This document shows, in pieces, positions 29,638 through 54,557 of a stretch of DNA of 64,000 nucleotides. Below the pieces are notes generated by a model, which was not told the DNA's origin, searched no databases, and worked only from the letters and a program-made list of their open reading frames with translations. The position numbers and the translations under genes were made by a program. The stretch comes from an uncultured Gammaproteobacteria bacterium (lineage in GTDB: Bacteria > Patescibacteriota > Patescibacteriia > CAZGFX01): NCBI GenBank assembly GCA_964524845.1, contig CAZGFX010000002.1, positions 157,422 through 221,421 of the forward strand. Reading direction: 5' to 3'. Position 1 is the stretch's first letter; every line of letters starts with the position of its first letter.

Positions 29638-31041
29638 TTAAAAACCCAACTTATTTTTTAGATATTCTGGAATTTCCTTTATAGCGATACGCTCTTGTGC
29701 CATCGTATCACGATCTCTTATGGTTACAGCGGAATCTGTAAGTGAATCAAAGTCAAATGTTATACAATATGGCGTTCCGATTTCATCTTGTCTGCGATAT
29801 CTCTTTCCAATGCTTCCTGTTTCATCGTACGCCGATGAATATGTTTTTTGGAGCGACATGAAAAGATCATACGCAGGTCCAGAAAGCTCTTCTTTTTTTG
29901 AAAGAGGAAGTACCGCCACCTTATACGGAGCAATTCTAGGATGAAATCGAAGAACAACTTCAACTTCTTTCACCGCTTCAGTAGTTGTACTTCTACCTCC
30001 TTCTATTTCTGTATAAGCATCACATAAAAACGCCAACATCGCTCTATCAGCACCGGCAGATGTTTCTACAATCCACGGAGTAAAACGCTCTCCGGTTGTT
30101 TGCTCAAAATATTGCAAGTCCTTACCTGAAAACTTCATGTGTTGAGAAAGATCCCAATCACCTCTATTATGAATACCTTCAAGCTCTTTCCATCCTATTG
30201 GAAAATAAAACTCTATATCATGTGCGGCACGCGCGTAATGAGCCAACTCATGTTCTCCATGCGCTCTATATCGCAAATGATCTGGATTAATACCATGATC
30301 GATATACCACTGACGACGAATCTCTTTCCACTCCCCGAAATATCTATCCGCCTCATCAGGACGAACGAAATATTGTTGTTCCATTTGTTCAAACTCTCTC
30401 GTACGAAATATGAAATTACCCGGAGTAATCTCGTTTCTAAACGCCTTACCAACCTGTGCGATTCCAAAAGGAATTTTCATGCGCGAGCTTTCTCTTACAT
30501 TTTCATAGTTTACATAAATACCCTGAGCCGTCTCCGGACGAAGATACACATTCGATGTATCTGTTTCAACGGCTCCCATTTGGGTTTTGAACATAAGATT
30601 AAACTGACGAACTTCAGAAAGCTCTCCTCCGCAATCAGGACACACTATCTCGCTCGCCATTCGAACTCCTGGTGTAAAATTTGGCTTAAGTCCCTTCGCT
30701 TCTAGCAAGTGATCGGCGCGCCATCTTTTTTTGCACTCTTTACAATCAACTAATGGATCATGAAATCCATCAATATGTCCGGATGCCTTCCATATCATCG
30801 GATGCATAAATATAGAAGAATCAAGAGGAACAACATCGTCACGAAGTTGTGTCATAGATCTCATCCACGCTTGTTTAATATTGTTTTTCATTAGTGTTCC
30901 AAGCGGACCATAATCATAACAAGAATTAAGACCACCATATATTTCTGATGATTGAAATATAAAGCCACGGCGCTTCGCGAGACTTACTATCTTGTCCATC
31001 GTCATATTTGGCTTTTCGTCTTCTATTTTATTTTCTTTCAT
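29638..31041 (-). CDS. glyQS: glycyl-tRNA synthetase, alpha2 (eukaryote/archaeal-like) type
   Basis: 467 aa; class II motifs, characteristic GlyRS insertion and C-terminal anticodon-binding domain ([14 protein letters not shown]..., [13 protein letters not shown]). Confidence 0.9.
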
Positions 31042-31230
31042 ATTAAAATATATTACTTATTCACGTACTGGATTATGGCTTATTTTACAATAAAAGTGAA
31101 GTCCTGATTCTTTTTTTTCCATATATTTATACACTTTAAATTAATATGAAAAACAAAACAATCAAAAAAAGCGAATAAAAGCCAAAAAGATGAGGATTTT
31201 TAAGTTTTCCACACATAATAAACAATAGAC

Positions 31231-31259
31231 TTGACTTTTTAGGAAGGATGATGTATGCT
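31231..31259 (+). promoter_or_regulatory. near-consensus sigma70-type promoter TTGACT-17-TATGCT
   Basis: TTGACT at 31231-31236, exact 17-nt spacer, TATGCT at 31254-31259; predicted TSS about 31266. No protein gene lies downstream on this strand. Confidence 0.5.
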
Positions 31260-31341
31260 GTTAACACTTGCTTAATGCGAGATTAAATAACTGAAACAAG
31301 AACAATTAGAAATCCGTTGTAAACGGAGAAGGAGCACGCAA

Positions 31342-31398
31342 ATGGCAAGAGCATCCCCGCTCAATAAAATGAGCAGAACGTCCTTTGAAGAGAAGTAA
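31342..31398 (+). CDS. micro-ORF MARASPLNKMSRTSFEEK (18 aa) with GAAGGAG SD, 7-nt spacer
   Basis: gaGAAGGAGcacgcaaATG; codons verified to TAA at 31396-31398. Confidence 0.25.
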   Translation: MARASPLNKMSRTSFEEK

Positions 31399-31823
31399 CC
31401 CGGCCCGCGACCGCACGCCAGCCATAACCCGAAAAACTCGGTCGGCTGTCTGAGCAGCGGTCAAATCGGGAACGCGCCCGCAATCCAATTTGTATAATGA
31501 AAAAATTGGGCGCACTCCCGGCTCGAAAAAAAATCCGCAAAACAATGATCGCGGAACAAAAAGTCCGGAAAAACTCCGGCACGATGAAAAACAACAAGAA
31601 AAACGGGGATTCAGAAATGAAATTAGATCACGGCTAGATTTAGGGGCAAAAGAAAAGCCCCGAAAAAAGCTTCGAAAAGAGGCATAAACCGGAGATTATT
31701 TTAAAAAAACAACACAAACCTCTCCGGGAAAAAAATCCGGCAAACCGGCAATCATATGCGGCACCAAAAACCATGGAGGCTACAGTGAAAATGAGATACG
31801 GTTGAATGCAATAAATTACATAT

Positions 31824-31862
31824 AAGTCCTTGTTATAATGACAAGGACTTTTCCGTTTTTTT
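31824..31862 (+). terminator. strong intrinsic terminator (AAGTCCTTGT-tataatg-ACAAGGACTT plus TTCCGTTTTTTT)
   Basis: 10-bp perfect stem at 31824-31850, U-rich tail 31851-31862. Confidence 0.8.
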
Positions 31863-31982
31863 AATAACAAACATTGATATTTTTATATTTTTATATACAA
31901 TTAACACAGCCTGCTTGACAGGTACAAATAACCTAAATAACCGAACAAGAGCAGTCTTTGATGACTGTAAGGAGCGTGTATC

Positions 31983-32033
31983 ATGGTTAAGATCAGAGGT
32001 CAGACGTCTTATCTTAAGATGTCGAAAGCGTGA
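31983..32033 (+). CDS. micro-ORF MVKIRGQTSYLKMSKA (16 aa), TAAGGAG SD, 8-nt spacer
   Basis: gtAAGGAGcgtgtatcATG; stop TGA at 32031-32033. Confidence 0.25.
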   Translation: MVKIRGQTSYLKMSKA

Positions 32034-32122
32034 AAGCGAAAAGAAAAAGGCCGCTGTTTCTCCTCGTTTATCAGCATGATTTTGCTGAAACCACGGAAAA
32101 AAAACATGGAAGGAGGTTCATT

Positions 32123-32170
32123 ATGAACCGCATCCGTGCCCAAAACAACCTGCATCAAAAAATGATGTAA
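32123..32170 (+). CDS. micro-ORF MNRIRAQNNLHQKMM (15 aa), GGAAGGAGGT SD, 5-nt spacer
   Basis: catgGAAGGAGGttcattATG; stop TAA at 32168-32170. N-terminus M-x-[KR]-I-R-[GA]-Q is shared with the previous micro-ORF. Confidence 0.25.
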   Translation: MNRIRAQNNLHQKMM

Positions 32171-32293
32171 GCGCCAAAAAAGCAAGGTCTCACCCAAGAA
32201 GTACTGGTCACTCCATTTATCGCAACAAATTAAGCGCGGTATAGAAGCGTGCCAAGAAAAACTTGGAAATAAAAACATGAAAGGAGTTTCAAA

Positions 32294-32314
32294 ATGAAAC
32301 GAAATTATGGCTAA
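32294..32314 (+). CDS. micro-ORF MKRNYG (6 aa), AAAGGAG SD, 7-nt spacer
   Basis: catgAAAGGAGtttcaaaATG; the upstream context aaaaacatgRAAGGAG repeats that of the previous micro-ORF. Confidence 0.15.
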   Translation: MKRNYG

Positions 32315-32380
32315 CCCTTCTCACAAAGACAAAAGGTTTTGTCAAAACTCGAGAGCGAGAACGATATAATAATTATAAGA

Positions 32381-32411
32381 CCCCACCCGAAGAGGTGGGG
32401 CATTTTTTATT
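32381..32411 (+). terminator. intrinsic terminator (CCCCACC-cgaaga-GGTGGGG plus CATTTTTTATT)
   Basis: 7-bp all-GC stem at 32381-32400 with U-tract. Confidence 0.75.
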
Positions 32412-32565
32412 GAAAAATAAACAATATTAAAAAATAATTTAAAATAGCATTTTTAAATCGATAAATATTGCACCAAACCCATATTGACAAATACATCATC
32501 AAGTCGAAACAAATTAACAATACTCACACAAACATAAATATTATTCATTCGTTTCTCATTTCAAT

Positions 32566-32592
32566 AAAAAATGCCCCGGTTTTTAACCGAGG
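32566..32592 (-). terminator. terminator downstream of the subtilisin gene
   Basis: Minus strand GCCTCGGTT-aaaa-AACCGGGGC (8/9 bp) followed by ATTTTTTATT. Confidence 0.5.
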
Positions 32593-32611
32593 CAATAATA
32601 GTCTACGCATT

Positions 32612-34096
32612 TCATTTTACGATTGTGAGTTTTTTTGAGACAGGTTTCATGTGTTCAGACTGAAGTCTATATATATATATTCCTGAACTGACCGCATGAC
32701 CATCATCGTTTCTACCATCCCATGTGATGAAGTGTCTTCCCGGATACTGATATGCATCAAAAAAAGTTCTGACCTTCTGTCCGAGTGTATTATATAGAAT
32801 TACAGTGGTACGACCAGGTCGACTGATTACATACTCGATCGTAGTTGATACATTGAACGGATTAGGATAGTTCTGATTGAGTTCCACAGATGGTTTTTGA
32901 AATGATCCCCTCTCTGGAAATATCGCTTCAAAAATTTTTGGCAATGACACAGCATTCTGGCTACCACCATCTTTATCAAGCGCAATGTTTCCGTTTTCTC
33001 TTATAATGTTTTTTATATCAATATTCTTTCCTGTCATAATCATAAGAGCAACGATTCCTGCAACTTGCGGGGCGGCATAACTCGTACCATCAACCCTGTG
33101 ATATCTAGAACCACACCATGTGGTCAGTACCTTGTTTCCAGGAGCAAACGCATCAACACTACCGAAATTAGACCAGTAAGAAACAGTTCCTACGGAATCG
33201 AGACTTCCTACTGATATGACGGATTTGTATCCGTTCGTTGAAATACGACCAAAATTCGTATAATGAGCTGGAAATACGGACATGTTCCATCCTTCGTTTC
33301 CGGAAGAGCACACGAAATAAATCTGAATTCCTGCAGAATCCGCTTTTTGTTCAGCGGTACGAATTAATTCTTCCCACGCCATAAGATCAAATTTTAAACC
33401 AAGACTCCAATTGATAACAAGATTTTTCTTGTTTTGAACAGCCCACAGAATTCGATCGTTTGCGGCAATAAGGATTGTACTTACATATCCATATCCATTG
33501 TCTTCGAGCACTCGCACCGCATACACATCTCCACAAGAAATACCGAATACTCCTTTTTTATTGTTCGCAGTAGCGCCGACAATGCCGGCTATTTCCGTAC
33601 CATGAACAAAAACCTCTTTCGGAACATACTCCATGGAATCTCCGTGTAGAACAGTATAGTTTTTCCCAAGTTTTATATTCTGAAGATCTTGATGTTCAAT
33701 TACCCACTTATCAGATCGTCGAACAAGTTCAATTCCGGAGTCATGAATATCAATCACAGTGTTTGACGGATCCAAAAGGTCGCCGTACTTTTGAAATACT
33801 GAAAAGAGTTCCATGTATTCAATAGCCCAGCTTCGCAATGGATCATTCGGATCAAACCGATATTGAGTTTTGTTTGACCCATATGCGGTCACCAAAGCAT
33901 CTTCTTCAATAACCTCAACTGAAGTGGTTTTTAAAAAAGATTTTGTCTCAACCTTGTACCAACTTCCAAACACATGCACCGCATTATTTGGAATATCTTT
34001 TTCGTTTTTCATCTTTATCAGATATCCTTGAGAATATCCTGAAAAAGAAATCAAAAAAGAAAAAGCAATCGTAATAATTACTTGAAATGTTCTCAT
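32612..34096 (-). CDS. secreted subtilisin-like (S8) serine protease with type IX secretion system C-terminal sorting domain
   Basis: Signal peptide; HGTEIAGIVGA (His box), GTSYAAPQVAGIVALM (Ser box); C-terminal 85 aa LNQNYPNPFNVSTTIEYVISRPGRTTVILYNTLGQKVRTFFDAY...ITWDGRNDDGHAVSSGIYIYRLQSEHMKPVSKKLTIVK is the Por_Secre_tail/T9SS type-A CTD pattern (NYPNPFN...G-Y-Y-L...KK-L-K). Confidence 0.85.
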   Translation of the reverse strand: MRTFQVIITIAFSFLISFSGYSQGYLIKMKNEKDIPNNAVHVFGSWYKVETKSFLKTTSVEVIEEDALVTAYGSNKTQYRFDPNDPLRSWAIEYMELFSVFQKYGDLLDPSNTVIDIHDSGIELVRRSDKWVIEHQDLQNIKLGKNYTVLHGDSMEYVPKEVFVHGTEIAGIVGATANNKKGVFGISCGDVYAVRVLEDNGYGYVSTILIAANDRILWAVQNKKNLVINWSLGLKFDLMAWEELIRTAEQKADSAGIQIYFVCSSGNEGWNMSVFPAHYTNFGRISTNGYKSVISVGSLDSVGTVSYWSNFGSVDAFAPGNKVLTTWCGSRYHRVDGTSYAAPQVAGIVALMIMTGKNIDIKNIIRENGNIALDKDGGSQNAVSLPKIFEAIFPERGSFQKPSVELNQNYPNPFNVSTTIEYVISRPGRTTVILYNTLGQKVRTFFDAYQYPGRHFITWDGRNDDGHAVSSGIYIYRLQSEHMKPVSKKLTIVK

Positions 34097-41750: not shown

Positions 41751-44700
41751 TTATTGGTTTTCTACCATACTTACATCTGTTCCCGTTTCGCTCGTAGGAG
41801 TTGTTTCGCCTGATGATGTTGTGGTCACAGGAGTTGAAACAGGTTGATCAACAATAACTGGAGAAGCTGGGGTTTCCGGAATAGGCTCACTTGTTTCTAT
41901 TATCTCCGCAAGCGAATCTGTTGGTGGTGTTGGATTGTTTATATATATTGGTACGTTTGGATTTATCGTATCGCGATTAATCTGATCTGTACCCACTTCG
42001 AATGCGAGCCATGTCACATCAACAAACTTCGCACAACCAGGTTCAGTCGCGACATCACACACGGGCTCTGACATCTCTATATCAAAACCTTCTTCGGTTT
42101 GATTACTTACCCATACGCGTCCTTTCCACGATCTAGCAGTATCAGGATCTTCAAACTTCGGCGTCAATGAAACAAGAACCTCATTTTTTTTCGGTGCGAC
42201 AAATGCAATATGTTGTGTTATTTGATTATATGAAAATCTAACAGACCCTGCCACATCTTTTGAAACAACCGAGAGACCACCTTTCAATTCAAGATTCTTT
42301 TCAAGTGTTACTGCATCCCGTACGACAAGTGTTCCTTGTATTTCAACATTTCCTTTCACGACAAGATCTTTTTCAAATACCGCTTTTTCTTTCACAACAA
42401 GAGCACCCGTCAAAGACATTATTGCAACATCAATTTGTAAACCATCTCCCAAAGACCATTTATTGTATTGAGGATTAATGTCTTCAACAATATTTTGTAC
42501 GTTAGGATCTGGTGTTTGCTGAACATCGCTTGGATCAATATAGACTCCTTGTATATCTCCTGCGCTAGGCTGTACCTGAACATCATCATCGCCTTCGACT
42601 ACTTCTTCGTCATCAAAAACAAGACTTAAACCATATAATTCATCAGTCGTGGCCATTCCAATCCAATATTGCGGTTGAACAAAAACAATAACTGAATTAG
42701 TACTTGGTTCAATACCCGAACTCCATCCGCTCATCGCCTGTCCGACAACGAATCCAGGACCGGTTGCTTTGATAGCATATCCTGGCATATCAGGAGATGA
42801 AGATAGATAATCACCAGTCACAATATCAGCAGAATGATTTATATCAATCTTCACAGGTACTCGACCGACAAGCACGACAAGTTTTGAAGACTGATCGTCA
42901 GAAGTTGTTTCAAGTGTTGTGTTTGGATGTTCCGTAACAACTCCGATAACACTCTTACCAGATGTACGAGTTGCTTTAACAACCGACTCCGAATCAGACG
43001 GATCAATTGAAACCAAATCTCCTTGTTCTATTGATAAATCACCAACTTGATAATACTTAGCGAGATCAAATACTTGTCTATTAAGTTCATTTAAAGCACC
43101 GACAATTGATGTTGATGTGAATGTCCCATCAAGTTTCGTATTTGTATCATCCGCAAGCGCGATTGGTGATTCTGTGTGTGAATCAGCAAGTCCGTTTCCT
43201 ACATTTACGGTATCAGTCACTACTATATTTTTCGCAGTGAGTGTTCCTGCTCCGTTTGTTGAAATCAGCCCTCCGTCTGATGAGAATGATCCGATGGTAA
43301 GCGTACCACCAGAAATTCCGCTAGTTACAGCTAAATTATTGACCGATAGTGTTCCTAGTCCGTTTGATGTAATAAGACCATTATCAGATGAAAATGAGTT
43401 TGTTTTTATTGTGCCTGTTGTAATATTTCCCAAACCATCTGATTGTATTACTCCTCCGTCAGACGAAATTTTTGGCAATGAAAGCGCAAGCGTTCCGTTC
43501 ATAAGAGGATCGAGAATATTTGTTTTTGTTTTTTGCATCTCTTTGAGAAGCAACACGGATAGAATTTCATAATGAACGGAATCTGGGCGACCCTGATTAT
43601 CGAAAAACACAAGCTGAGGAAGAACTTCCGCTGCTTCTTCCGCAATCAAACCAAATGTCCTATTCTCTGGTAGATCAGGAAGCTCGTTTGGCGTATAACT
43701 TACTGGTCTCAAATCAAATATTTTCGATGTATCAGTTTCTATATCTGTAATACTCTTTTTATATCGTCGTGATGATGTATATTTAAATAATTGATTACTA
43801 CCATTTATATGAATAGCAGTACCTGCCGTACCACTCGAAGGAAGTCCATCAAAAGCAACTGTACTACTAGCATAAAAAGATCCTTCTATTTCTGTATAAC
43901 CCAAAAACGAATCTCCATTAACAAAAAAATCATTATCAGCTTCCAATCTTCCACCATAAAAATAGGCATCCCCATCTGAGGTAATAGAAAATCTGTTCAC
44001 ACTGTTTGTTTCTATATTAAAATCATTTGGGCCTGAGTTGGAATAAACTAAAACATTAGTATCGGAAAAAGCTATCTGTGGATCCTCGCTAGTAAGAAAA
44101 AGACTTCTATTCATATCTATGGAAGATCCGATTGTTATATTACTATCATCCGGGTCACCTAATATTAATTCGCGACCACTATATGAGACTGTAAGTGCCG
44201 TACCAGTCCAAGCACCACCATCACCTGACATAGACATTTTAAACTTACTAATATTAGGTGCAGAAGTATCAATACCCATAGAAACAGTATCATCGCCTGA
44301 TTTAAACATTAAAGTAGCATCCCCGGTACCCATTTGTTCTATTTTCAACATTGGTGTTGTTTCGGTACTGTTTTCATATATATGAAAATTTGCACTTGGT
44401 GCATTTGTGCCTAATCCAAATCTAATACTCGTTCCATTATAACCAGTATATCTAATATAAGAGTCTTCAAAATATCCTAATTTCATCTCTAAAGAATCAT
44501 CGTAAATTCCAGATAAATTTACCGATCCATCGCTAGGCATTACTCTAAAAAAACCATAAGAATTATCAAAAGTTGGCGGGTAAGATCCATCATTAAAACC
44601 TATAACAAAATCGTCATAAGATGTCGAACTATCAATACCCATTACATAATGTCCTGATGAAGACGATGTGTCAGAAACAAATCCAATTGCCGGATCTCCT

Positions 44701-47700
44701 GTACCAGCTTGTTGCAACATAAGCATAGGAGTTGTCTGTGTAGAGTTTTCATACAAGTGAAGATTCGTACTTGGAGTAGCAAAACCAAGTCCTATATTTC
44801 CACTCGAATCAATAACAAACCTATCACTTGTTCCAAGTCCTGTCGTGCTTATTTTAAACTTATCACTATCAGAATCATCTACGCCCATGGTAAATGAATT
44901 CGTTCCTTCAGCAAGTTGAAACCCAATCGCAGTATCATAATCACCTGCATTTGTGTTTACAACAAAAACATTTGTGTTTATAGCAGATGAAGATGCTACA
45001 TCAAGCATTGCATCTGGCGACGTATCACCTATACCCATATATCCATTACTGTTTATACGCATTCTTTCATAAAGATCACCATTAAGTGATGTTTGCAATG
45101 AAAAATAACTGTCTCGTGTCGAAGCGGTATCGTTCCACGCACCCTCAGTCCCAACGATAATTCGCGCCGACCCATCAACTCCTGGATCATCCACGGATCC
45201 TGAAAACCACTGATTAAACAAAACTCCTGTCTGTGTATTAGAAGAAGCTTGTCTTGTGTTCGTTATCTCAATAAAATCTGTAAGACCTCCATCAGTTCCC
45301 GTTTGTTCTATATCAAGAAGTGACGATGGTGGATATAATGGATTAGAAAAAGCTCCTACTCCAACAAGTCCGCCACTTGTTACAGATAAACGACGTGTTC
45401 CTGCTGTCGTGAGATCAATGGTATCTGCTCCAGATGAGTATACACCAGTATTTGTATCTCCAACAAAAGATATTGAAGGATTTCCTACTGCACCCAGAGG
45501 ATGATAAGCGTATCCACTTGAATTAACTTGAAACAAATCCCCACTACCGACTGTGAAGAGTGACGCAGGAGACGAATCTCCTATACCAACATATCCTGCA
45601 TTATCAACACGCATAGCTTCAATCATGCTTCCTGTATTTCTTACATTAAAACGCATCGACGAGACACCAGAATTAACACCCGCACTCTCCCAAACAGTAT
45701 CTATACTTCCGGCTTCAAGTCCCATACCATCATTATCCTCAAGATATGTGACAATTCCAGACCCAAGTCCTGTATTATCCATTGATGGACGAGTTACGTT
45801 CATAGTCAGTGTATCAATCACAGTGGCTGTGGTATTTGCTTTTGACAAATGAAGAATACTAGAAGGAGTATTCGTTCCTATTCCTATATTTCCACTCGAA
45901 TCAATTACAAACCTATCGTTTGTACCAAGCGCTGTTGTAGATATTTTAAACTTATCAGAATCAGAATCATCAATACCCATAGTAAAAGTATTTGTTCCAT
46001 CAGCGAGTTCAAAACCTATTTGAGAATCGTAATTTCCTGCATTCGTATTTGAAATTGTAAACTGAGTATTTGCTGCACCTGATGACATAATTTCAAGAAG
46101 TTGATCTGGTGTTATGTCTCCTACACCAACGTTTCCTCCATAAAGAAGTGTCATAACAGTGTTTGAAAGCGTCTGCCCATTAGTTGTGCCAGAAGAAAAA
46201 GCCAGATCGTTTGTATTCTGTTTGTGTATTGTCCAATCACCATATCCTCCTCCTTGATTATCAAATGTCAACCAGTTATATACACTTGAGTTTGCTTGAT
46301 TACTAGAAATAGTAAACTTACTATAAGATGTTGCCGTAGTACCAACACTTATGTTTCCAGAAGAATTAATCGTCATACGATTTGTTCCTCCTGTAGCAAA
46401 ATCTAGGGCATCTGCTCCTGATGAGTATATACCAGTGTTCGGATCACTGACAAAAGACACCGACGGTGTTCCTACTGCTCCGAGAGGATAAAGCGCATAT
46501 CCACTTGAATTAACCTGAAACAAATCTCCATTTCCGACTGTGAGAAGTGATGCTGGTGTCGCATCACCAATACCAACATTTGCGCTTAATATGTTCACAT
46601 AATCTGTCGCTTGATCATCGAATGCTATTCGTCCGGCAATTGATCCAAGACCCAACCAATCATCGTCTGCATTCGCATCAGAAAAAGCATCACCAGAAGT
46701 CATAGAACCAACAGATGTTACATCACCTGTTCCAGCAGATACCCATGTTAAATTTCCACTTCCATCGTTTCGAAGAACTGTATTTGATGAACCCTGAGAA
46801 CCAGGCCACGAGTATGTTACATTATTAACTTTTACGATGTTTCCGGATGAGTTGACTTGAAACAAATCACCATCTCCAACAGTAAATAAAGACGCTGGCG
46901 TTGCGTCACCAACACCAAGGTTTGCGCTCATTATATTTACATAATCGGTGGCCTGATCATCAAACGCAACTCGTCCAGCACTTGCTCCAAGTCCGAGCCA
47001 ATCATCATCAGCATTCGCATCCATAAAAACATCCCCTCCTGTCATAGAACCGACTGTTGTAATATCTCCTGTTCCTGAACCCGTAACCCATGTGAGTGTT
47101 CCGCTTCCATTATTGCTTAATACAGTACCTGCACCTCCTTGTGCTGACGGCCACGAGTATGTAACATTATTAACTTTTACGAGGTTTCCTGATGAGTTTA
47201 CTTGAAATGTATCTCCGCTACCTACTGTAAGAAGAGATGCTGGTGTCGTCTCTCCAATACCGACGTTCGCACTCAAAATATTTACATAATCGGTAGCCTG
47301 ATCATCAAAAGTAATACGTCCAGCAGCTGCTCCAAGTCCAAGCCAATCATCATCAGCATTCGCATCCATAAAAACATCTCCCGATGTCATAGAACCAACC
47401 GTAGTTATATCACCAGTTCCTGAAACGGTAACCCAGGTAAGATTACCACTTCCATCGTTTCTTAAGTATGTGTTTGATGCTCCCTGAGAAGCTGGCCACG
47501 AATATGAAACATTATTTACTTTTACAAGATTACCGTATGAGTTAACTTGAAATAAGTCTCCGTTTCCAACTGTGAAAAGAGATGTCGGTGAAGAATCTCC
47601 TATACCAATATATCCTTCATAACTAATTCTAAAAGCCTCTGACATTGAGCTGTTATTCATGTGATTAAATATTACAGAGGCTTTTTCTCTTGTTTCACGA

Positions 47701-50700
47701 GGATCCTCCCACACGACATCAATTCCAGCCGCCTGAGACAAACCATCTTGATCGTTTTCCAAATAAAATCCAATGCTGGCACCGAGTCCTTGAGCACCAG
47801 AACTATCATAATTTATTCTCTCTATACGTAACGCCTCCATAATATCAGACGCATCATTCTGAGAAAGAACCGAGAGTGTAGAAGCCGGAGTACTTGTACC
47901 AACACCAAGCCTATTATTTGTATCATCCCAGAATAGATTTGAATTATCTTGAGTGTACACACCACTTCCCCCAGCAAATACAAGTGAGCCCGATGTAAAT
48001 TGAGTACCGGTTCCTGTACCGCCTCTTGTAACATTTAAATATTGTTCTGATGTTAATGAGTTTGTTCCATTCCAATACGCTATATATCCGTTTGTTCCTG
48101 TTCCTGTTGCAACAGTTCCTGATGTTGGAAGCGTAATACTTGTAGCTCCTGATGTTGTAAAAAATAGCGTGTTCCCTGCAGTACCAAGAGGAACAACACC
48201 GGTATTATCTTGAAAAGTTATCGTCTTATCAGATACTGTTGGATCTGTTATAGCAAATGTTGTTTCGTATGTGTTGTCTGTTGCTCCTTCAAAAACCAGA
48301 GGAGAGGCACCTTGAATAACACCTCCGAGAGTCAGTGCATTAGAAGCGTTTCCGATCGATACAGCACCAGTTGATGTCCCTGTGTTTATATTTGTAGTAA
48401 AGTTTGAACTTGCATTTATAGAAGACGTTGCTCCTGACACAGTAAGTCCTCCTGTTCCTTGTATAACTCCTGTTGTTGAGTTAACACCAACAAAAGATGC
48501 TGCACCAGCACCTGAAACAGACCATTGTCCATCTGTAATAACAACATTTGCTGATGCATTTCCTATTGTAACCGTCCCCGTTGATGTACCGGTGTTTATG
48601 TTTGTAGCAAAATTTGAACCATGATTAATATATACAGTGTTTCCTGAAGTTACAAAAGAACCAGTGTTTGTAATACCCCGAACAGAAACTATTGCACCAG
48701 ATGAATTTACTTGAAACAAGTCTCCATTTCCTACAGTAAACAAAGAATCCGGAGATGAATCACCCACACCAACGTTTCCTCCATTAAAAACAGCAGAATA
48801 TGTGTTGTCACGACTATTTGCAGTATCAGTATCAACATATAAACCTGTAATTGTGTTTCTATATCCTCCAAAATCATCGTCTATGTTTATATGCATACCA
48901 TACACGGTGTCCACATAATCCTCGTTTTGTGGATTGTTTGAAATATTTAATTTATATCCATATAGTGTAGCAATATCACTTGGATTCATTGTTACATTAT
49001 GAGAAATACTTGAGGAAGCATCGGTTTGTAGATCTAAAGAGGTCAAACTAAGAACGGGATTTGTTACATCGCTTGACGAAATAGATATTGTATCATCTGT
49101 AATAGATGGCGAAAGGTTTGTTCCTGATCTGGTCCAATATCCCAGCGTTCCTGTTGATGGTGGTGTTGTAGTAAGATACCCTGAAGAATCAGTATATACA
49201 CCACTTTCCGTACCGAGCGAATTAAATAAAATATTTCCTGATGATGCTAAACCAGTGAGACCTGATGCGACACCGGCTGACGACACGTCCCACGATGATG
49301 TGTTTATAGCGAGCGTGTTTGATCCACCACCGATTGATACGGCGCCGGTTGATGTTCCTGTATTTATGTTTGTCGCGAAATTAGAACTTGCGTTCAATGA
49401 TACTGCTCCACCCGAGCTTGTCACTGCTCCAGTGTTTGTAATTCCTTGAACAGATGCTATTGCGCCAGATGAGTTGACTTGAAAAAGATCTCCGTTCCCT
49501 ACTGTGAAAAGAGATGCAGGAGTTGTATCTCCGATACCAATATTTCCTGCAGGAGTGATATTTAAAAATTCGTTCGTTCCTTCTAGAATACGCAAATTAC
49601 CTTCGCTTGACCCATCTGTTTCTTGTATACCGATTTTCCAATCGCGAGCAGTCGTTGTTTCGGCTGCGGTTGAATATACATGAAGCGATGATGGTCCTAA
49701 ATATAAATCTCTCCAACGCAAAGAAGACGATCCGAGATCATAAGAATCATCACTGTTTGGTCCAACTGATCCGGCAACTTGTAATTTAAATGTCGATGGT
49801 GCACTTGTGCCAACACCAACGTTTCCACTACTATTAACATATAAACTATTTACAGATGCGCCATCCTCAATTACAAAAACATTGATACTACCTCCTGTCG
49901 TATCTTGAATTCTAAAATCATCGTTTGCATTCACACCCATTTTCCATTGCCTAGCATCATTAATAAAATCAAAATCAGCAGCTCCATTAAGACCTGTATT
50001 TTCTATTCTTCCTGCAATATAACTTCCGGCCGCTGATCCAGAAACATGCAATCTTTGTTGAGGACTAGCAGTCCCGATCCCAAGCCTATTATTCGTATCA
50101 TCCCAAAAAAGGTTTGTATTATCTTGTGAGTACACTCCGCTTCCTCCAGCAAACACTAGTGATCCTGAAGTAAACTCAGTACCTGTACCGGTACCACCAC
50201 GTCCAACAGAAAGGTATTGTTCTGATGTTAATGAGTTTGTTCCATTCCAATACGCGACGTATCCATTTGTACCAGTTCCTGTTGCCATGGTTCCTGATGT
50301 TGGAAGAGTTATGCTTGTTGCTCCTGATGTTGTAAAAAATAGTGTGTTCCCTGCAGTGCCAAGAGGAACAACACCGGTATTATCTTGAAATGTTATTGTC
50401 TTATCAGATGCAGTGGTATCAGTGATTGAAAATGTAGTCTCATAAGTATCGTCTGTAGCTCCTTCAAACACAAGAGGAGAAGCACCCTGAATAATACCTC
50501 CTAGAGTTAATGCATTAGAAGAGTTTCCAATTGATACAGCTCCTGTTGATGTGCCTGTGTTTATATTTGTCGCAAAATTAGAATTTTCGTTGATAGATGA
50601 CGAGGCACCAGACACAGTAAGTCCTCCTGTTCCTTGTATAAGTCCTGTGGTTGAATTAACACCGACAAACGAAGCTGCACCAGCACCTGAAACAGACCAT

Positions 50701-52025
50701 TGTCCATCTGTAATAGCAACATTTGCTGATGCGTTTCCTATTGTAACGGTACCGGTTGATGTTCCTGTGTTTATATTCGTTGCAAAGTTTGAATTTGCAT
50801 TTAAAGAGATGACCGCACCACTTGCTGTGGTTGTTCCTGTAACAGTAAGGCCGGTTAAGCCTGATGCGACACCGGCTGATGACACATCCCACGATGATGT
50901 ATTTATTGCTAGTGTATTTGAATTTCCACCTATTGATACAGCACCCGTTGATGTTCCTGTATTGATGTTTGTCGCGAAATTAGAACTTGCATTCAGAGAT
51001 GCTATTCCGCCACTGGTTGTAGTTGCTCCCGTAACAGTAAGGCCGGTAAGACCTGATGCGACACCGGCTGACGACACGTCCCACGATGATGTATTTATTG
51101 CTAGTGTATTTGAATTTCCACCGATTGATACGGCGCCGGTTGATGTTCCTGTGTTTATGTTTGTAGCAAAATTAGAACTTGCGTTCAAAGATATTGCTGC
51201 GCCCGAGCTTGTGACTGCTCCAGTGTTTGTAATTCCTGTCATGTATGATGTTCCGTCCACTTCGAGATCATTCTGAATATATAAATCACCAAGTCCATCG
51301 GCGTTGTTTGCTGTACCAGCTGAACCAGTACGGATAAGTCCTCCATCTAGAACCCGAAGAGCGGATGTGCCATTGTCCTGTACATCGAGAATACCTCCTG
51401 TTCCTTGTTGATTGATGACGATCGCTGATCCACTTGATGTATTTACGGTCACAGATGTATTTGCTTGAAATGTGTATGATCCTGTTATTGTTTCGTTTTC
51501 TGATGTGTCTGCAAATTCTTCTTCTGATTTACCATCAAGAGCGTCTGTGTTAAATGCATAAGGAGATGCGGTCATTCTTTTTCTTGGCAAAAAAACTTCT
51601 TCGTACGATCCATTGTTATCAGCATCAAGACGAACCTCGAGATATAAGTTATCAGTATTGAAATCAAGAGAACCAGGAAGAGATGTATGAGTTCCTATAT
51701 CAACTGAGAATATTCCATCAGTAAGTGAAACTTGAGATGTTCCTGAATTCCACGTCTCTGTATAAGCGGCCGATCCTCCTGTGCTAACTGTAAAAAATGC
51801 AAACTGCATATTGTAACTGCTGTTTGCAATATTAATACCATTTGATGCTGTGATCTTGGCTTGATAAGAAAGTTTTTTGTTTATACCTGCGGCACCATAA
51901 ACAATCGGCACCCACGTAAAAAACAAACACGCTAAAACAAGCGCGGTAAGAAGCTTCCTTAAGACTGAAAATCGTATTAAAACAAGCATGGTAATTTTTA
52001 CGAAAACCTTTTCAGTTAGCGCCAA
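41751..52025 (-). CDS. giant (3424 aa) membrane-anchored, repeat-rich fibre-like surface protein with an internal phage tail-fibre S74-type intramolecular-chaperone-like module
   Basis: N-terminal TM/signal; Gly/Ser/Thr/Asn-rich beta-repeats; recurring motif [IV]G[IV]GDxxPxSL[FL]TVGxGDxFQVNSSG (tail-fibre-like NVGIGT..P class); about 64-aa and about 113-aa tandem repeat families; a large block duplicated 2160 nt apart. About 679 aa from the C-terminus lies SSRRYKKSITDIETDTSKIFDLRPVSYTPNEL...GLIAEEAAEVLPQLVFFDNQG...YEILSVLLLKEMQ (pattern of the peptidase-S74 chaperone domain), then a Pro/Thr-rich C-terminus. Confidence 0.85.
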   Translation of the reverse strand: MALTEKVFVKITMLVLIRFSVLRKLLTALVLACLFFTWVPIVYGAAGINKKLSYQAKITASNGINIANSSYNMQFAFFTVSTGGSAAYTETWNSGTSQVSLTDGIFSVDIGTHTSLPGSLDFNTDNLYLEVRLDADNNGSYEEVFLPRKRMTASPYAFNTDALDGKSEEEFADTSENETITGSYTFQANTSVTVNTSSGSAIVINQQGTGGILDVQDNGTSALRVLDGGLIRTGSAGTANNADGLGDLYIQNDLEVDGTSYMTGITNTGAVTSSGAAISLNASSNFATNINTGTSTGAVSIGGNSNTLAINTSSWDVSSAGVASGLTGLTVTGATTTSGGIASLNASSNFATNINTGTSTGAVSIGGNSNTLAINTSSWDVSSAGVASGLTGLTVTGTTTASGAVISLNANSNFATNINTGTSTGTVTIGNASANVAITDGQWSVSGAGAASFVGVNSTTGLIQGTGGLTVSGASSSINENSNFATNINTGTSTGAVSIGNSSNALTLGGIIQGASPLVFEGATDDTYETTFSITDTTASDKTITFQDNTGVVPLGTAGNTLFFTTSGATSITLPTSGTMATGTGTNGYVAYWNGTNSLTSEQYLSVGRGGTGTGTEFTSGSLVFAGGSGVYSQDNTNLFWDDTNNRLGIGTASPQQRLHVSGSAAGSYIAGRIENTGLNGAADFDFINDARQWKMGVNANDDFRIQDTTGGSINVFVIEDGASVNSLYVNSSGNVGVGTSAPSTFKLQVAGSVGPNSDDSYDLGSSSLRWRDLYLGPSSLHVYSTAAETTTARDWKIGIQETDGSSEGNLRILEGTNEFLNITPAGNIGIGDTTPASLFTVGNGDLFQVNSSGAIASVQGITNTGAVTSSGGAVSLNASSNFATNINTGTSTGAVSIGGGSNTLAINTSSWDVSSAGVASGLTGLASSGNILFNSLGTESGVYTDSSGYLTTTPPSTGTLGYWTRSGTNLSPSITDDTISISSSDVTNPVLSLTSLDLQTDASSSISHNVTMNPSDIATLYGYKLNISNNPQNEDYVDTVYGMHINIDDDFGGYRNTITGLYVDTDTANSRDNTYSAVFNGGNVGVGDSSPDSLFTVGNGDLFQVNSSGAIVSVRGITNTGSFVTSGNTVYINHGSNFATNINTGTSTGTVTIGNASANVVITDGQWSVSGAGAASFVGVNSTTGVIQGTGGLTVSGATSSINASSNFTTNINTGTSTGAVSIGNASNALTLGGVIQGASPLVFEGATDNTYETTFAITDPTVSDKTITFQDNTGVVPLGTAGNTLFFTTSGATSITLPTSGTVATGTGTNGYIAYWNGTNSLTSEQYLNVTRGGTGTGTQFTSGSLVFAGGSGVYTQDNSNLFWDDTNNRLGVGTSTPASTLSVLSQNDASDIMEALRIERINYDSSGAQGLGASIGFYLENDQDGLSQAAGIDVVWEDPRETREKASVIFNHMNNSSMSEAFRISYEGYIGIGDSSPTSLFTVGNGDLFQVNSYGNLVKVNNVSYSWPASQGASNTYLRNDGSGNLTWVTVSGTGDITTVGSMTSGDVFMDANADDDWLGLGAAAGRITFDDQATDYVNILSANVGIGETTPASLLTVGSGDTFQVNSSGNLVKVNNVTYSWPSAQGGAGTVLSNNGSGTLTWVTGSGTGDITTVGSMTGGDVFMDANADDDWLGLGASAGRVAFDDQATDYVNIMSANLGVGDATPASLFTVGDGDLFQVNSSGNIVKVNNVTYSWPGSQGSSNTVLRNDGSGNLTWVSAGTGDVTSVGSMTSGDAFSDANADDDWLGLGSIAGRIAFDDQATDYVNILSANVGIGDATPASLLTVGNGDLFQVNSSGYALYPLGAVGTPSVSFVSDPNTGIYSSGADALDFATGGTNRMTINSSGNISVGTTATSYSKFTISSNQANSSVYNWLTFDNQGGGYGDWTIHKQNTNDLAFSSGTTNGQTLSNTVMTLLYGGNVGVGDITPDQLLEIMSSGAANTQFTISNTNAGNYDSQIGFELADGTNTFTMGIDDSDSDKFKISTTALGTNDRFVIDSSGNIGIGTNTPSSILHLSKANTTATVIDTLTMNVTRPSMDNTGLGSGIVTYLEDNDGMGLEAGSIDTVWESAGVNSGVSSMRFNVRNTGSMIEAMRVDNAGYVGIGDSSPASLFTVGSGDLFQVNSSGYAYHPLGAVGNPSISFVGDTNTGVYSSGADTIDLTTAGTRRLSVTSGGLVGVGAFSNPLYPPSSLLDIEQTGTDGGLTDFIEITNTRQASSNTQTGVLFNQWFSGSVDDPGVDGSARIIVGTEGAWNDTASTRDSYFSLQTSLNGDLYERMRINSNGYMGIGDTSPDAMLDVASSSAINTNVFVVNTNAGDYDTAIGFQLAEGTNSFTMGVDDSDSDKFKISTTGLGTSDRFVIDSSGNIGLGFATPSTNLHLYENSTQTTPMLMLQQAGTGDPAIGFVSDTSSSSGHYVMGIDSSTSYDDFVIGFNDGSYPPTFDNSYGFFRVMPSDGSVNLSGIYDDSLEMKLGYFEDSYIRYTGYNGTSIRFGLGTNAPSANFHIYENSTETTPMLKIEQMGTGDATLMFKSGDDTVSMGIDTSAPNISKFKMSMSGDGGAWTGTALTVSYSGRELILGDPDDSNITIGSSIDMNRSLFLTSEDPQIAFSDTNVLVYSNSGPNDFNIETNSVNRFSITSDGDAYFYGGRLEADNDFFVNGDSFLGYTEIEGSFYASSTVAFDGLPSSGTAGTAIHINGSNQLFKYTSSRRYKKSITDIETDTSKIFDLRPVSYTPNELPDLPENRTFGLIAEEAAEVLPQLVFFDNQGRPDSVHYEILSVLLLKEMQKTKTNILDPLMNGTLALSLPKISSDGGVIQSDGLGNITTGTIKTNSFSSDNGLITSNGLGTLSVNNLAVTSGISGGTLTIGSFSSDGGLISTNGAGTLTAKNIVVTDTVNVGNGLADSHTESPIALADDTNTKLDGTFTSTSIVGALNELNRQVFDLAKYYQVGDLSIEQGDLVSIDPSDSESVVKATRTSGKSVIGVVTEHPNTTLETTSDDQSSKLVVLVGRVPVKIDINHSADIVTGDYLSSSPDMPGYAIKATGPGFVVGQAMSGWSSGIEPSTNSVIVFVQPQYWIGMATTDELYGLSLVFDDEEVVEGDDDVQVQPSAGDIQGVYIDPSDVQQTPDPNVQNIVEDINPQYNKWSLGDGLQIDVAIMSLTGALVVKEKAVFEKDLVVKGNVEIQGTLVVRDAVTLEKNLELKGGLSVVSKDVAGSVRFSYNQITQHIAFVAPKKNEVLVSLTPKFEDPDTARSWKGRVWVSNQTEEGFDIEMSEPVCDVATEPGCAKFVDVTWLAFEVGTDQINRDTINPNVPIYINNPTPPTDSLAEIIETSEPIPETPASPVIVDQPVSTPVTTTSSGETTPTSETGTDVSMVENQ
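46480..47560. repeat. three tandem copies of an about 339-nt (113-aa) unit inside the giant gene (VNNVTYSWP..QG...DANADDDWLGLG..AGRIAFDDQATDYVNILSANVGIGDATPASLLTVG)
   Basis: Near-identical DNA blocks starting near 46520, 46861 and 47200. Confidence 0.7.
50540..51290. repeat. intragenic tandem repeats of about 192 nt (64 aa: ASSNFATNINTGTSTGAVSIGGNSNTLAINTSSWDVSSAGVASGLTGLTVTG...) inside the giant gene; further copies near 48380-48620 and 49255-49450
   Basis: Repeated peptide strings visible on both the coding strand and antisense ORFs (50551-51276, 48382-48624, 49255-49449). Confidence 0.7.
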
Positions 52026-52239: not shown

Positions 52240-53628
52240 TTATTTTATATATTCTTTATTAAGGATTTCTCGTGTTTTCGGACCGACATAGCCTGTCACT
52301 GAAATTCCTCTTGCACGCTGGAAATCTGCCACGGCATCTACTGTGACTTTTCCATAAATTGCACTTGGATTTGTGTTTGCTGGAAAAAATCCGATTTTTT
52401 GCAAGAATGTTTGAAGTAAACGAACCTCTTCATCGATAGATCCTTCTGTAAGAAACTTAGTAAACACAATTTTTGAATCAGTAGGAACCGGTTTTTGTTC
52501 AAAATTATCTGAAACAGAAGAACTTGTTGGCATTGAATTCTCGACTAGAATTGTATTTAAATCTGATGTAGTTATTCCTAAACTCAAAAACCTCATTATA
52601 GAATAAGCCGCGCTTCCGTCTTTCATGTAATACCTTTTTTGATCAGCTGGATTTATATACCACGCCTCTCCTCTAGATTCTACTTGAAGCAAAATTCTTC
52701 CGCTCAAACGATTAATTAATTTCGTATCATAAATTAAAGATCCACTTCCTATTGGATTTGTGTTTTTTATCAACGCCTCGTCTCCATCACTTATGCCATC
52801 TCCGTCCGTATCTTTCTGAGTAGGCGATGTTTTCAAAGCCTCCTCTAATTTATCAGATAAGCCATCATTATCCGTGTCAGCGTCTTTAAAACGATTTTCT
52901 GTTCCAATAGGTATCTTTGATAAATCAGAATTTGTAATTCCTAATCCGAAATTACGAAGCGCTTCATAAGCCACTGGACCATCTTTTAAATAAAAACGTT
53001 TTTTTGTAACAGGATACACATACCAAGCCTCACCCTTTGATTCTACTTGAAGAAGTATTTTTCCTGATACTCTATCCAACAAACTCCCACTGGTTATATT
53101 TTTATTAACCGAATTCGTGTCAGAAGAACCACCAACAACTAGCGACGGAAGTCCTTTAATAATGTTTGTTCCTTTTCCGTCGTTTGCTAGAATCGCCCCT
53201 GATATAAACTTCCATTCCGCAAATCCCTTCTTTTTTACAGTAAAATTAACAGTCATCACAAGACCCTTGTCTCCTTTAAATCCGGGATTGAATAAAACAC
53301 CTTCAAATTGAATCGCGTTCGTATTTTTTACAACGGGGGTTGTAAGCCAGAGCTGAACGATTGAATCGTTCGTAATAATCGAATCAACAGTAATATAATC
53401 CGATGAAAAAGACATCTCTCCAGAAACCGCGTTAATTGATTCTGAGTCGGAAGACGTTGTTATTTGTAAGGATCCTTTTTCCCCAATTGAATAATCTGAT
53501 TTGTTTGTTGTAATCGAAAAACTAGCAATTCCAATGGCATGTGTTTCCTTTTCGCACTGAAAAAAAAGTGCGCCTACAATAATTGCGACGAGGATGAAAA
53601 AATTAATTGTATAAAAAAATGTTTTCAT
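52240..53628 (-). CDS. secreted/anchored protein: cohesin-like beta domain, duplicated about 55-aa module, thrombospondin-type-3-like Ca-binding repeats, C-terminal peptidoglycan-binding (PG_binding_1-like) domain
   Basis: Start at MKTFFYTINFFILVAIIVGALF (4-nt ATGA overlap with the upstream gene); DADTDNDGLSDKLEEAL / DTDGDGISDGDEAL; duplicated SG[KR]ILLQVES[KR]GEAWY..P...KR[FY]Y[LM]KDG..AY; C-terminal EEVRLLQTFLQKIGFF...GKVTVDAVADFQRARGISVTGYVGPKTREIL. Confidence 0.6.
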   Translation of the reverse strand: MKTFFYTINFFILVAIIVGALFFQCEKETHAIGIASFSITTNKSDYSIGEKGSLQITTSSDSESINAVSGEMSFSSDYITVDSIITNDSIVQLWLTTPVVKNTNAIQFEGVLFNPGFKGDKGLVMTVNFTVKKKGFAEWKFISGAILANDGKGTNIIKGLPSLVVGGSSDTNSVNKNITSGSLLDRVSGKILLQVESKGEAWYVYPVTKKRFYLKDGPVAYEALRNFGLGITNSDLSKIPIGTENRFKDADTDNDGLSDKLEEALKTSPTQKDTDGDGISDGDEALIKNTNPIGSGSLIYDTKLINRLSGRILLQVESRGEAWYINPADQKRYYMKDGSAAYSIMRFLSLGITTSDLNTILVENSMPTSSSVSDNFEQKPVPTDSKIVFTKFLTEGSIDEEVRLLQTFLQKIGFFPANTNPSAIYGKVTVDAVADFQRARGISVTGYVGPKTREILNKEYIK

Positions 53629-54554: not shown

Positions 54555-54557
54555 ATA

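Follow-up and report, generated by a model that had tools for sequence, protein, structure and literature searches.

A 1570-nt gene-free spacer beside glyQS in a Patescibacteria genome: candidate locus for two related structured RNAs with very short reading frames

Introduction

What is encoded by 1570 nt without a protein gene, in DNA where every other gap between genes measures 368 nt or less? The question is raised by the spacer at positions 31042-32611 of a 64,000-nt stretch of contig CAZGFX010000002.1 (assembly GCA_964524845.1; the whole stretch is called the window below). The spacer lies between glyQS (29638-31041, minus strand), which encodes the glycyl-tRNA synthetase GlyRS, and a gene for an S8 peptidase (32612-34096, minus strand), and the longest open reading frame (ORF) in any of its frames has 89 aa. 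A preliminary description of the DNA had singled it out as the long protein-gene-free stretch of the window, which was correct, and had taken it for a single undescribed RNA or micropeptide locus on the plus strand. That reading survives in part and is not proven: no known family matches, the signals lie on the plus strand, folding is in excess and micro-ORFs with ribosome-binding sites (RBS) are present, but the region resolves into two paralogous units instead of one island. These units are tentatively proposed here to be lineage-specific structured RNAs that also engage ribosomes, a variant of the dual-function regulatory RNAs that bear short ORFs (sORFs).

Two predicted transcription units

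The spacer is predicted to hold two tandem plus-strand units, U1 and U2, each with its own sigma-70-like promoter and intrinsic terminator. The U1 promoter, TTGACT-17-TATGCT, was found by consensus scan at 31231-31259, in agreement with the preliminary description. The U1 terminator at 31824-31862 was also placed correctly there and on the right strand, although its stem has 12 pairs, including one G-U, and not 10; it is closed by a 3-nt loop and followed by the U-rich tail UUUUCCGUUUUUUU, while the reverse strand has no U tail. Bounded by these two signals, U1 would give a transcript of about 600 nt (~31266-31862). Since a second promoter, TTGATA-16-TACAAT with 10/12 consensus matches, is located at 31874-31901, after the first terminator and ahead of the second half of the spacer, two units are proposed. 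U2 would give a transcript of about 500 nt (~31908-32411), bounded in the same way and ending in a plus-strand terminator at 32381-32411 that had been called all-GC and in fact has six G-C pairs out of seven.

The neighbouring genes have signals of their own. The glyQS promoter, TTCACT-17-CATAAT, lies on the minus strand at 31072-31100 (within a block at 31066-31104), divergent from U1 and outside the RNAs. The terminator of the peptidase gene lies on the minus strand at 32572-32594, convergent with U2, and marks the true right-hand end of the orphan region. Since glyQS has its own promoter and the peptidase gene its own terminator, U1 and U2 appear to be free-standing, divergent from the former and convergent with the latter. 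In the spacer region as a whole, promoter-like sites numbered 12 against 4.6 ± 2.1 in shuffled sequence, and terminator-like sites 10 against 1.9 ± 1.6.

A perfect 19-nt inverted repeat (32397-32415/32559-32577; GGGGCATTTTTTATTGAAA and TTTCAATAAAAAATGCCCC) comprises the 3′ stem halves and tails of the convergent U2 and peptidase terminators, and the 143 nt between its arms have a GC content of about 24%. It may reflect the duplication of a terminator or delimit a small inserted element.

The composition of the units is unusual. U1 has 39% A, 18% T and 43% GC, and U2 has 38% A and 40.5% GC, with T at 18-22% in the units. The AT skew on their plus strand, with A exceeding T, is 0.35-0.55, unlike the coding strands of the genome, where A is 32% and T is 28%. 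The preliminary description, which had missed this skew as well as the second promoter and the four AAGGAG-ATG sites presented below, had reported GC contents of 45-50% for two cores against about 34% for the flanking genes. This contrast was overstated: 31290-31800 has 45.8% GC and 31960-32400 only 41.3%, and the flanking genes stand at 40.1% and 38.8%, although the units do exceed the edges of the spacer (25-26%). The whole window has 36.7% GC, and 31300-31600 is the sole stretch that reaches 52%.

Relationship and folding of U1 and U2

The local alignment of U1 with U2 scored 80, compared with 49.8 ± 7.2 for shuffled sequences and a maximum of 71 in 200 shuffles. The units look like old paralogues whose 5′ parts can still be aligned. 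Both present, in the same order, the −10 box, TTAACAC, a 5′ hairpin, AAATAAC, GAACAA, a second hairpin and AAGGAGC, with AUGG following 6-7 nt on. As read from the sequence, the plus-strand 5′-terminal hairpin of U1 is CUUGC-UUAAU-GCGAG (31267-31281), and its counterpart in the equivalent place of U2 is CCUG-CUUGA-CAGG (31910-31922). The second hairpin, directly 5′ of the Shine-Dalgarno sequence, is UCCGUU-GUA-AACGGA in U1 (31313-31327) and CAGUC-UUUGAU-GACUG in U2 (31952-31967), matching in position and unrelated in sequence.

The 5′ hairpin of U1 can alternatively pair with GGCAAG at 31344-31349, just past the start codon of the first sORF, in the minimum free energy (MFE) structures of both the full unit and the leader alone. 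A long-range leader helix common to both units (CUUGCU/GGCAAG in U1, CUUGAC/GUUAAG in U2) was considered and rejected, as it is in the MFE structure for U1 only. In addition, the leader motif AAAUAACC, single in U1, is tandemly doubled in U2 (AAATAACCTAAATAACC, 31926-31941), where it pairs with the start-codon region AUGGUUA in the leader MFE structure.

Past the leader, U1 contains a G+C-rich multi-helix core of about 52% GC (31399-31600, plus strand), the helices of which are present in both MFE and centroid structures, and then a succession of short hairpins built on CCGG, with loops and linkers that are rich in A. CCGG was counted 8 times where 1.4 are expected, and A5 runs 20 times where 5 are expected.

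The plus strands of the whole units fold better than dinucleotide shuffles, with z values of −4.7 for U1 and −4.3 for U2; the minus strand of U2 gives −2.7. In 150-nt folding windows, the mean plus-strand z is −2.28 in the units compared with −0.24 (antisense) and −0.50 (sense) in the flanking genes (Mann–Whitney p ~7e-6, for windows that overlap). In 12 of these 15 windows, z is lower on the plus strand than on the minus strand, and the strongest plus-strand signal, with z from −3.5 to −4.0, is found in U1 at 31450-31750.

Micro-ORFs and minigene modules

Each unit carries three micro-ORFs behind Shine-Dalgarno sequences, of 18, 6 and 6 codons in U1 and 16, 15 and 6 codons in U2, separated by G+C-rich hairpins and A-rich linkers and followed at the end by the terminator. 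The window has six plus-strand sites of the form AAGGAG-N4-9-ATG, and four of them are in the spacer, all perfect and with a spacing of 7-8 nt.

The first sORF of U1 (AAGGAG-7 nt-ATG, 31329-31398, start 31342, plus strand as for all that follow) has 18 codons, MARASPLNKMSRTSFEEK, and ends in TAA. That of U2 (AAGGAG-8 nt-ATG, 31969-32033, start 31983) has 16 codons, MVKIRGQTSYLKMSKA, ends in TGA and contains a hairpin with 15-nt arms (inverted repeat 31987-32017). The other micro-ORFs belong to four copies of what appears to be a minigene module, named c1 to c4. Two of them are in U1: c3 at 31606-31637 (start 31617), GGGGA-8-ATG AAA TTA GAT CAC GGC TAG (MKLDHG), which is followed by the hairpin GGGGC-A9-GCCCC, and c4 at 31775-31805 (start 31785), GGAGG-5-GTG AAA ATG AGA TAC GGT TGA (MKMRYG). 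The two in U2 are c1 at 32104-32170 (start 32123), a two-tier stem-loop enclosing AAGGAGG and ATG with a 15-codon sORF (MNRIRAQNNLHQKMM), in which the stop at codon 7 has been lost, and c2 at 32275-32314 (start 32294), with a two-tier stem-loop as in c1 and AAGGAG-8-ATG AAA CGA AAT TAT GGC TAA (MKRNYG).

The three six-codon ORFs of c3, c4 and c2 fit the pattern M-K-x-x-(Y/H)-G-stop with TAG, TGA and TAA as stops, and vary synonymously (GGC/GGT, TAT/TAC). Since three different stops and these synonymous changes are seen while the flanks no longer align, the pattern points to constraint on the reading frame. It has one other match in the window, which is not an ORF, and none in 880 kb of related CPR (Candidate Phyla Radiation, Patescibacteria) loci. 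Further copies of modules or units were found neither in the window nor in ~16.5 kb beyond its ends.

The youngest copies, c1 and c2, form a 43-nt direct repeat with 77% identity and a spacing of 171 nt, and in MFE structures they fold into the same two-tier stem-loop around the Shine-Dalgarno sequence and start codon. They differ at 12 positions in 40 nt; four of these make up two compensatory pairs, two keep the pairing and one breaks a terminal pair. These compensatory changes are only suggestive of a conserved structure.

Searches against known families and classes

The Rfam search called for in the preliminary description was performed, and its statement that transfer-messenger RNA (tmRNA), RNase P, SRP/4.5S and 6S RNA could not be matched was upheld. 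The covariance models of Rfam 15 gave no match at gathering score in the whole window. A search of the spacer with permissive filters and E<=10 gave noise only, the best match being mir-59 with 21 bits against a threshold of 80. ARAGORN detected no tRNA or tmRNA.

Protein-level searches were equally negative. The spacer was translated in six frames, and the pieces of 35 aa or more, concatenated, found no match at E<=10 among 5.8 billion proteins, and Pfam gave three weak matches on the spacer frames (E 0.012-0.14), all far under the curated cut-offs. A protein gene or a recognisable pseudogene was therefore rejected, as neither search revealed homology in any frame. A short likeness was observed for the initiation region of c1 (32104-32131, ACATGGAAGGAGGTTCATTATGAACCG), which agrees in 27 of 28 nt with the beginning of a Dam-type methylase gene from a phage (MNRPALKWLGSK..., IMG/VR contigs L206 and L208). 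A Dam-methylase pseudogene was rejected by Pfam and BLASTP, the protein similarity downstream being nil, and the likeness is judged to be a coincidence between hairpin-containing ribosome-binding sites. Blastn searches with the spacer against phages and plasmids gave short chance matches only, so a phage or plasmid fragment was also rejected.

The window proteins scanned (all but a few, one of which is the 3424-aa protein) included no Cas protein, reverse transcriptase, Nop-domain protein, transposase, CsrA or Hfq. TIGR-Tas guide-RNA arrays have been reported in CPR bacteria and phages, and are recognised by 5-15 regular units, either two alternating 8-12-nt repeats with 9-nt spacers or regular stem-loops (PMC12045711). 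Such an array was rejected, since there is no periodic family, Tandem Repeats Finder (TRF) returned four trivial two-copy repeats only and no Nop domain is present in the scanned set. A diversity-generating retroelement or a retron was discarded given the lack of a reverse transcriptase gene in the same set. A sponge of the CsrB/RsmZ type would present many GGA motifs in hairpin loops, and was dismissed because GGA is not enriched (U1 has 10, with 10.8 expected, and U2 has 6, with 8.3 expected). A type I toxin-antitoxin system was discarded as well: the sORF peptides are short, basic and hydrophilic, and no hydrophobic peptide of ~20-60 aa is encoded. Finally, a replication origin does not fit, as gene orientation shows no switch and the cumulative skew no turn.

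Comparison with other genomes

The best non-identical relatives of the GlyRS encoded at 29638-31041 are from Candidatus Magasanikbacteria and other Patescibacteria, with only 66-68% identity, which indicates that the host is a lone CPR lineage, Magasanikbacteria-like. The identical GlyRS sequence is present on the NCBI contig, which is 309,728 bp long, and in the Logan assemblies SRR12133403 and SRR12133404. The GlyRS cluster has one other member, L082 (1959 nt, ENA assembly ERZ27247864, contig k141_783990), whose glyQS shows 92.7% protein identity, 61% identity at third codon positions and 47% at fourfold-degenerate sites, so that neutral sites are near saturation between the two hosts. The L082 contig ends at window position 31244, and the comparison therefore reaches the U1 −35 box and not the bodies of U1 and U2.

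The 203 nt from the start of glyQS to the U1 −35 box are 87% identical in L082, and the −35 box and 45 nt upstream of it are kept. Compared with 47% at fourfold-degenerate sites, this identity argues for constraint on the control region upstream of U1 in a second species. Identity is 100% in a block of 39 nt that covers the predicted glyQS promoter (31066-31104, minus strand), more than a promoter requires, and the block probably also serves glyQS as an operator or leader element; the E<=10 Rfam search of the spacer matched neither a T-box nor another leader. The segment 31185-31244, upstream of the U1 −35 box, is ~92% conserved in L082 and contains a DnaA-box-like TTTTCCACA at 31204-31212. 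It may be a regulator-binding site common to the divergent promoters.

Beyond L082, 80 GlyRS loci from genome collections (<=66% identity) showed no similarity to the spacer by blastn and nhmmer. One of them, L001, has a long spacer upstream of glyQS, which holds unrelated small genes. The clusters of tgt, rsmI, the methionyl-tRNA synthetase (MetRS) gene and the gene of a 680-aa protein are singletons. A metagenome scan with a strict minigene-module pattern gave 0 matches, and a loose one gave more than 120, all of them either chance occurrences or parts of coding sequence, namely a conserved protein motif, FTMKLVHGY, and a protein with tandem repeats. A scan of viral sequences with the leader pattern gave 24 matches, about the number expected by chance.

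Likeness to known systems

The dual-function RNAs RNAIII/hld, SgrS/SgrT and SR1/SR1P have one sORF of 26-43 codons that encodes a defined peptide. U1 and U2 resemble them as stand-alone promoter-to-terminator units of several hundred nt, strongly folded and with an RBS and short ORF, but differ in having three sORFs per RNA, down to 6 codons, and in being two tandem paralogues. What U1 and U2 present of this class is its prerequisites at sequence level, namely RBS, sORFs and excess folding.

The large RNAs OLE, ROOL, GOLLD and raiA share with the units the size (0.5-0.6 kb), an own promoter and terminator, G+C-rich helices with A-rich joins and a compact A+T-rich genome. In contrast to U1 and U2, so far seen in one lineage, they are widely conserved and lack canonical RBS micro-ORFs; none of the four was matched with Rfam 15. 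STAB-SD and other 5′ stabiliser elements of Gram-positive mRNAs require neither a start codon nor an ORF. The perfect Shine-Dalgarno-like sequences of U1 and U2 are similar to these, and binding of the small ribosomal subunit could shield the downstream RNA from 5′-exonuclease, but every strong Shine-Dalgarno sequence in the units has a correctly spaced start and a short frame.

A further likeness is to the CreT RNAs. For these to act, a six-codon mini-ORF that contains rare codons must have a strong Shine-Dalgarno sequence, start efficiently and be followed by a stem-loop, and toxicity depends on two consecutive identical rare codons (PMC8501985). In common with CreT, where the act of translation matters and not the peptide, the units have six-codon mini-ORFs that are predicted to be initiated efficiently and are followed by a stable stem-loop: c2 (AAGGAG-8-ATG), c4 (GGAGG-5-GTG) and c3 (GGGGA-8-ATG) have six codons each and a hairpin after them. 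Their codons after the start, AAA CGA AAT TAT GGC in c2, AAA TTA GAT CAC GGC in c3 and AAA ATG AGA TAC GGT in c4, include the individually uncommon GGC, CGA, CAC and TAC, but no repeat. CreT modules also include a divergent creA antitoxin that resembles CRISPR repeats and lies beside cas genes. Neither the proteins scanned in the window nor the called genes of the extra flanks include cas genes, and there are no repeat-like elements. U1 and U2 are also five to ten times longer than CreT, with three sORFs per RNA, and their host is a CPR bacterium and not a haloarchaeon. Membership of the CreT class was thus rejected for lack of an identical rare-codon pair and of a CRISPR context, and the analogy alone stands.

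Weighing of the proposed reading

The sequence signals, the colinear paralogy, the micro-ORFs with RBS, the G+C-rich hairpins, the unusual composition, the plus-strand folding excess and the lack of a known homologue were all observed directly, and two ribosome-engaging structured RNAs are the reading with which signals, paralogy, frames, hairpin domains, composition and folding fit together best. U1 and U2 would be anciently duplicated tandem units, each transcribed from its own promoter to its own terminator into a folded, A-rich and U-poor RNA that loads ribosomes. Each RNA would present a first sORF of 16-18 codons and then copies of the six-codon minigene M-K-x-x-(Y/H)-G-stop. The action of the RNA would depend in part on the loading of ribosomes and on translation over very short frames, and not on a conventional protein product; such translation could protect it, remodel its fold or engage translation components. 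The functional output would be regulatory.

Several observations weigh against this reading. Transcription, translation and a regulatory role of the units are inferred from sequence, and no orthologue of U1 or U2 was found in another genome in the searches of the 80 GlyRS loci and of protein, phage and plasmid, metagenome and viral collections. The leader MFE structures of U1 and U2 differ, and the minus strand of U1 also folds well, with a z of −4.9. The minigene pattern, 21 nt long, was defined after seeing the copies, which are related by descent. Moreover, a covariance model built from c1 and c2 fails to find c3 or c4, so that the four-module family rests on this post hoc pattern. The c1/c2 pair cells contain 23/24 standard pairs, but the pair counts are reached by 120 of 500 shuffles, come from two sequences only and carry no statistical weight by themselves. 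The peptides of the first sORFs of U1 and U2 are barely alike, and A-rich, T-poor sequence yields long open frames and Lys/Arg-rich peptides by chance.

Alternative explanations

The same micro-ORFs could make U1 and U2 micropeptide operons, that is, small mRNAs whose products are the peptides (18, 6 and 6 aa from U1; 16, 15 and 6 aa from U2), acting as signals or enzyme substrates, with hairpins that merely stabilise the mRNA. The canonical Shine-Dalgarno sequences and starts, the AAA second codon in all three hexapeptide ORFs and the persistence of M-K-x-x-(Y/H)-G through synonymous and stop-codon changes speak for it. However, more than 80% of each transcript is non-coding and nevertheless G+C-rich and folded, the first-sORF peptides differ between the units, c1 has lost its stop and no maturation, export or modification genes are nearby. 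Peptide products as the main purpose are accordingly considered unlikely.

The possibility was also considered that the region is a decaying remnant of a small lineage-specific plus-strand gene cluster, in which promoters, RBS and starts survive, frames are broken and no function is left. Intact starts followed by early stops do have the look of pseudogenes. In addition, orphan genes are common here, as exemplified by the neighbouring S8 peptidase, which has no homologue at E<1e-30, and a decayed orphan gene would therefore escape homology searches. Against decay, the composition is unlike that of coding strands (T 18-22% compared with 28%, and a strong A skew), folding is stronger than in real genes, and promoters, terminators and colinear elements are intact in both units though their sequences have diverged nearly to noise. 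Furthermore, the shortness of the other spacers suggests that dead DNA is removed in this genome. The chance that the region is such a remnant is small.

A role as minigene RNAs acting on the translation apparatus, like the CreT toxins and phage lambda bar, is quite improbable. The six-codon ORFs would tie up tRNAs as peptidyl-tRNA, with tRNA-Gly(GCC) at the last codon and tRNAs of the queuosine family before it. Strong Shine-Dalgarno sequences, starts at AUG or GUG, a length of six codons and hairpins downstream are all in place. The last sense codon of all three minigenes is Gly GGY (GGC makes up 7% of Gly codons), and codons 4 and 5 are NAY in 5/6 cases compared with 17% expected, although both codon observations were made post hoc on homologous, non-independent copies. 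NAY codons are those read by queuosine-modified tRNAs; glyQS adjoins the spacer and tgt is one gene away. Nonetheless, the consecutive identical rare codons on which CreT toxicity depends are missing, neither cas genes nor a creA-like antitoxin was seen among the scanned window proteins (the 3424-aa protein being one of the few unscanned), and a toxin under two apparently constitutive promoters would need a repressor, none of which is seen. The same codon usage and gene neighbours inspire a further reading, which must be taken as a long shot: U1 and U2, located between glyQS and tgt among genes for tRNA synthetases and tRNA modification, might be CPR-specific translation-sensing RNAs, with arrays of hexapeptide minigenes read by queuosine-family tRNAs and ending on a tRNA-Gly(GCC) codon, which report on or buffer the charging or modification of those tRNAs via ribosome dwell time, peptidyl-tRNA drop-off or a change of fold.

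Leader-peptide attenuators, which include hexapeptide leaders such as MsrDL, resemble the units in having a very short ORF with a strong Shine-Dalgarno sequence just upstream of an intrinsic terminator. Here, 18 nt separate the end of c4 from the U1 terminator, and 66 nt separate the end of c2 from the U2 terminator. Ribosomes on these mini-ORFs would control read-through, by which transcription of U1 would continue into U2 and that of U2 would enter the peptidase gene in antisense; as a plus-strand U tail is missing from the peptidase terminator, the latter read-through would go on antisense. Unlike in attenuators, no co-oriented gene, the defining context, follows U1 and U2, the next gene being convergent. 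The folds contain no anti-terminator pairing, U2 has its own promoter, and attenuation is very unlikely.

It is hardly credible that the minus strand is the functional one and forms, from the peptidase gene to glyQS, an array of terminators or a long structured leader. Hairpin-plus-T-run sites exist on it (31579-31565, 31555-31534 and 31327-31313) in addition to the U1 fold already mentioned, but A-rich linkers on the opposite strand account for the T runs, the peptidase gene and glyQS are served by a terminator and a conserved promoter of their own, respectively, no T-box or other leader was matched, and the plus strand folds better in most 150-nt windows. A known RNA (RNase P, tmRNA, 6S, SRP or an intron fragment) diverged past model detection is most improbable since, even though RNAs of CPR bacteria are often divergent and AAAGUCCGG occurs at 31559-31567, no such family appeared under the permissive Rfam search, ARAGORN found nothing, and neither two paralogous copies with RBS nor sizes of 500-600 nt fit.

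Genomic neighbourhood

Around the ribosome-engaging RNA candidates lie housekeeping genes, many of them for translation: SerRS, a class II synthetase, SecA, a hibernation factor, CysRS, Dus, TatD and CvpA, and further MetRS, RsmI, GlyRS, the S8 peptidase, Tgt, RecO and IleRS. Genes related to tRNA are crowded in ~40 kb (window 1-42000 plus L204), namely SerRS, the class II aminoacyl-tRNA synthetase (tRNA-synt_2), CysRS, Dus, MetRS, RsmI, GlyRS, Tgt and IleRS. Despite this crowding, there is no tRNA gene in the 64 kb.

The subtilisin-like S8 peptidase (32612-34096, minus strand) carries a C-terminal domain of the FlgD_ig type. No homologue besides itself was found at E<1e-30 among 5.8 billion proteins, and it is, as predicted from its sequence, an orphan secreted protease. 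Its public gene call begins 28 codons downstream of the longest ORF start (466 aa compared with 494 aa).

Further along the window, an ORF of 3424 aa (41751-52025, minus strand) is accompanied downstream by a 1337-aa ORF with no Pfam match and several surface proteins with Ig-like, dockerin and TSP3 repeats. This region has the appearance of a gene cluster for the cell surface or for attachment, as is typical of episymbiotic CPR bacteria. An apparent gap of 851 nt at 53707-54557 is actually a gene of 309 aa. The corresponding ORF (53625-54554, minus strand) overlaps the start of the gene for a 488-aa peptidoglycan-binding protein (52240-53706, minus strand) by 82 nt, and one of the two start codons is probably mis-assigned.

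Significance

Genomes of CPR bacteria (Patescibacteria) are about 1 Mb in size and tightly packed, and almost nothing is known of their regulatory RNAs. The spacer between glyQS and the S8 peptidase gene offers a concrete and testable case in which these uncultured episymbionts may use RNAs specific to their lineage for regulation. Should the region be decaying instead, it would be informative on the speed with which dead sequence is purged in such genomes. If the minigenes are functional, they would extend minigene-type RNAs beyond the CRISPR-linked CreT of haloarchaea and phage lambda bar, and tie them to a tRNA-related gene neighbourhood.

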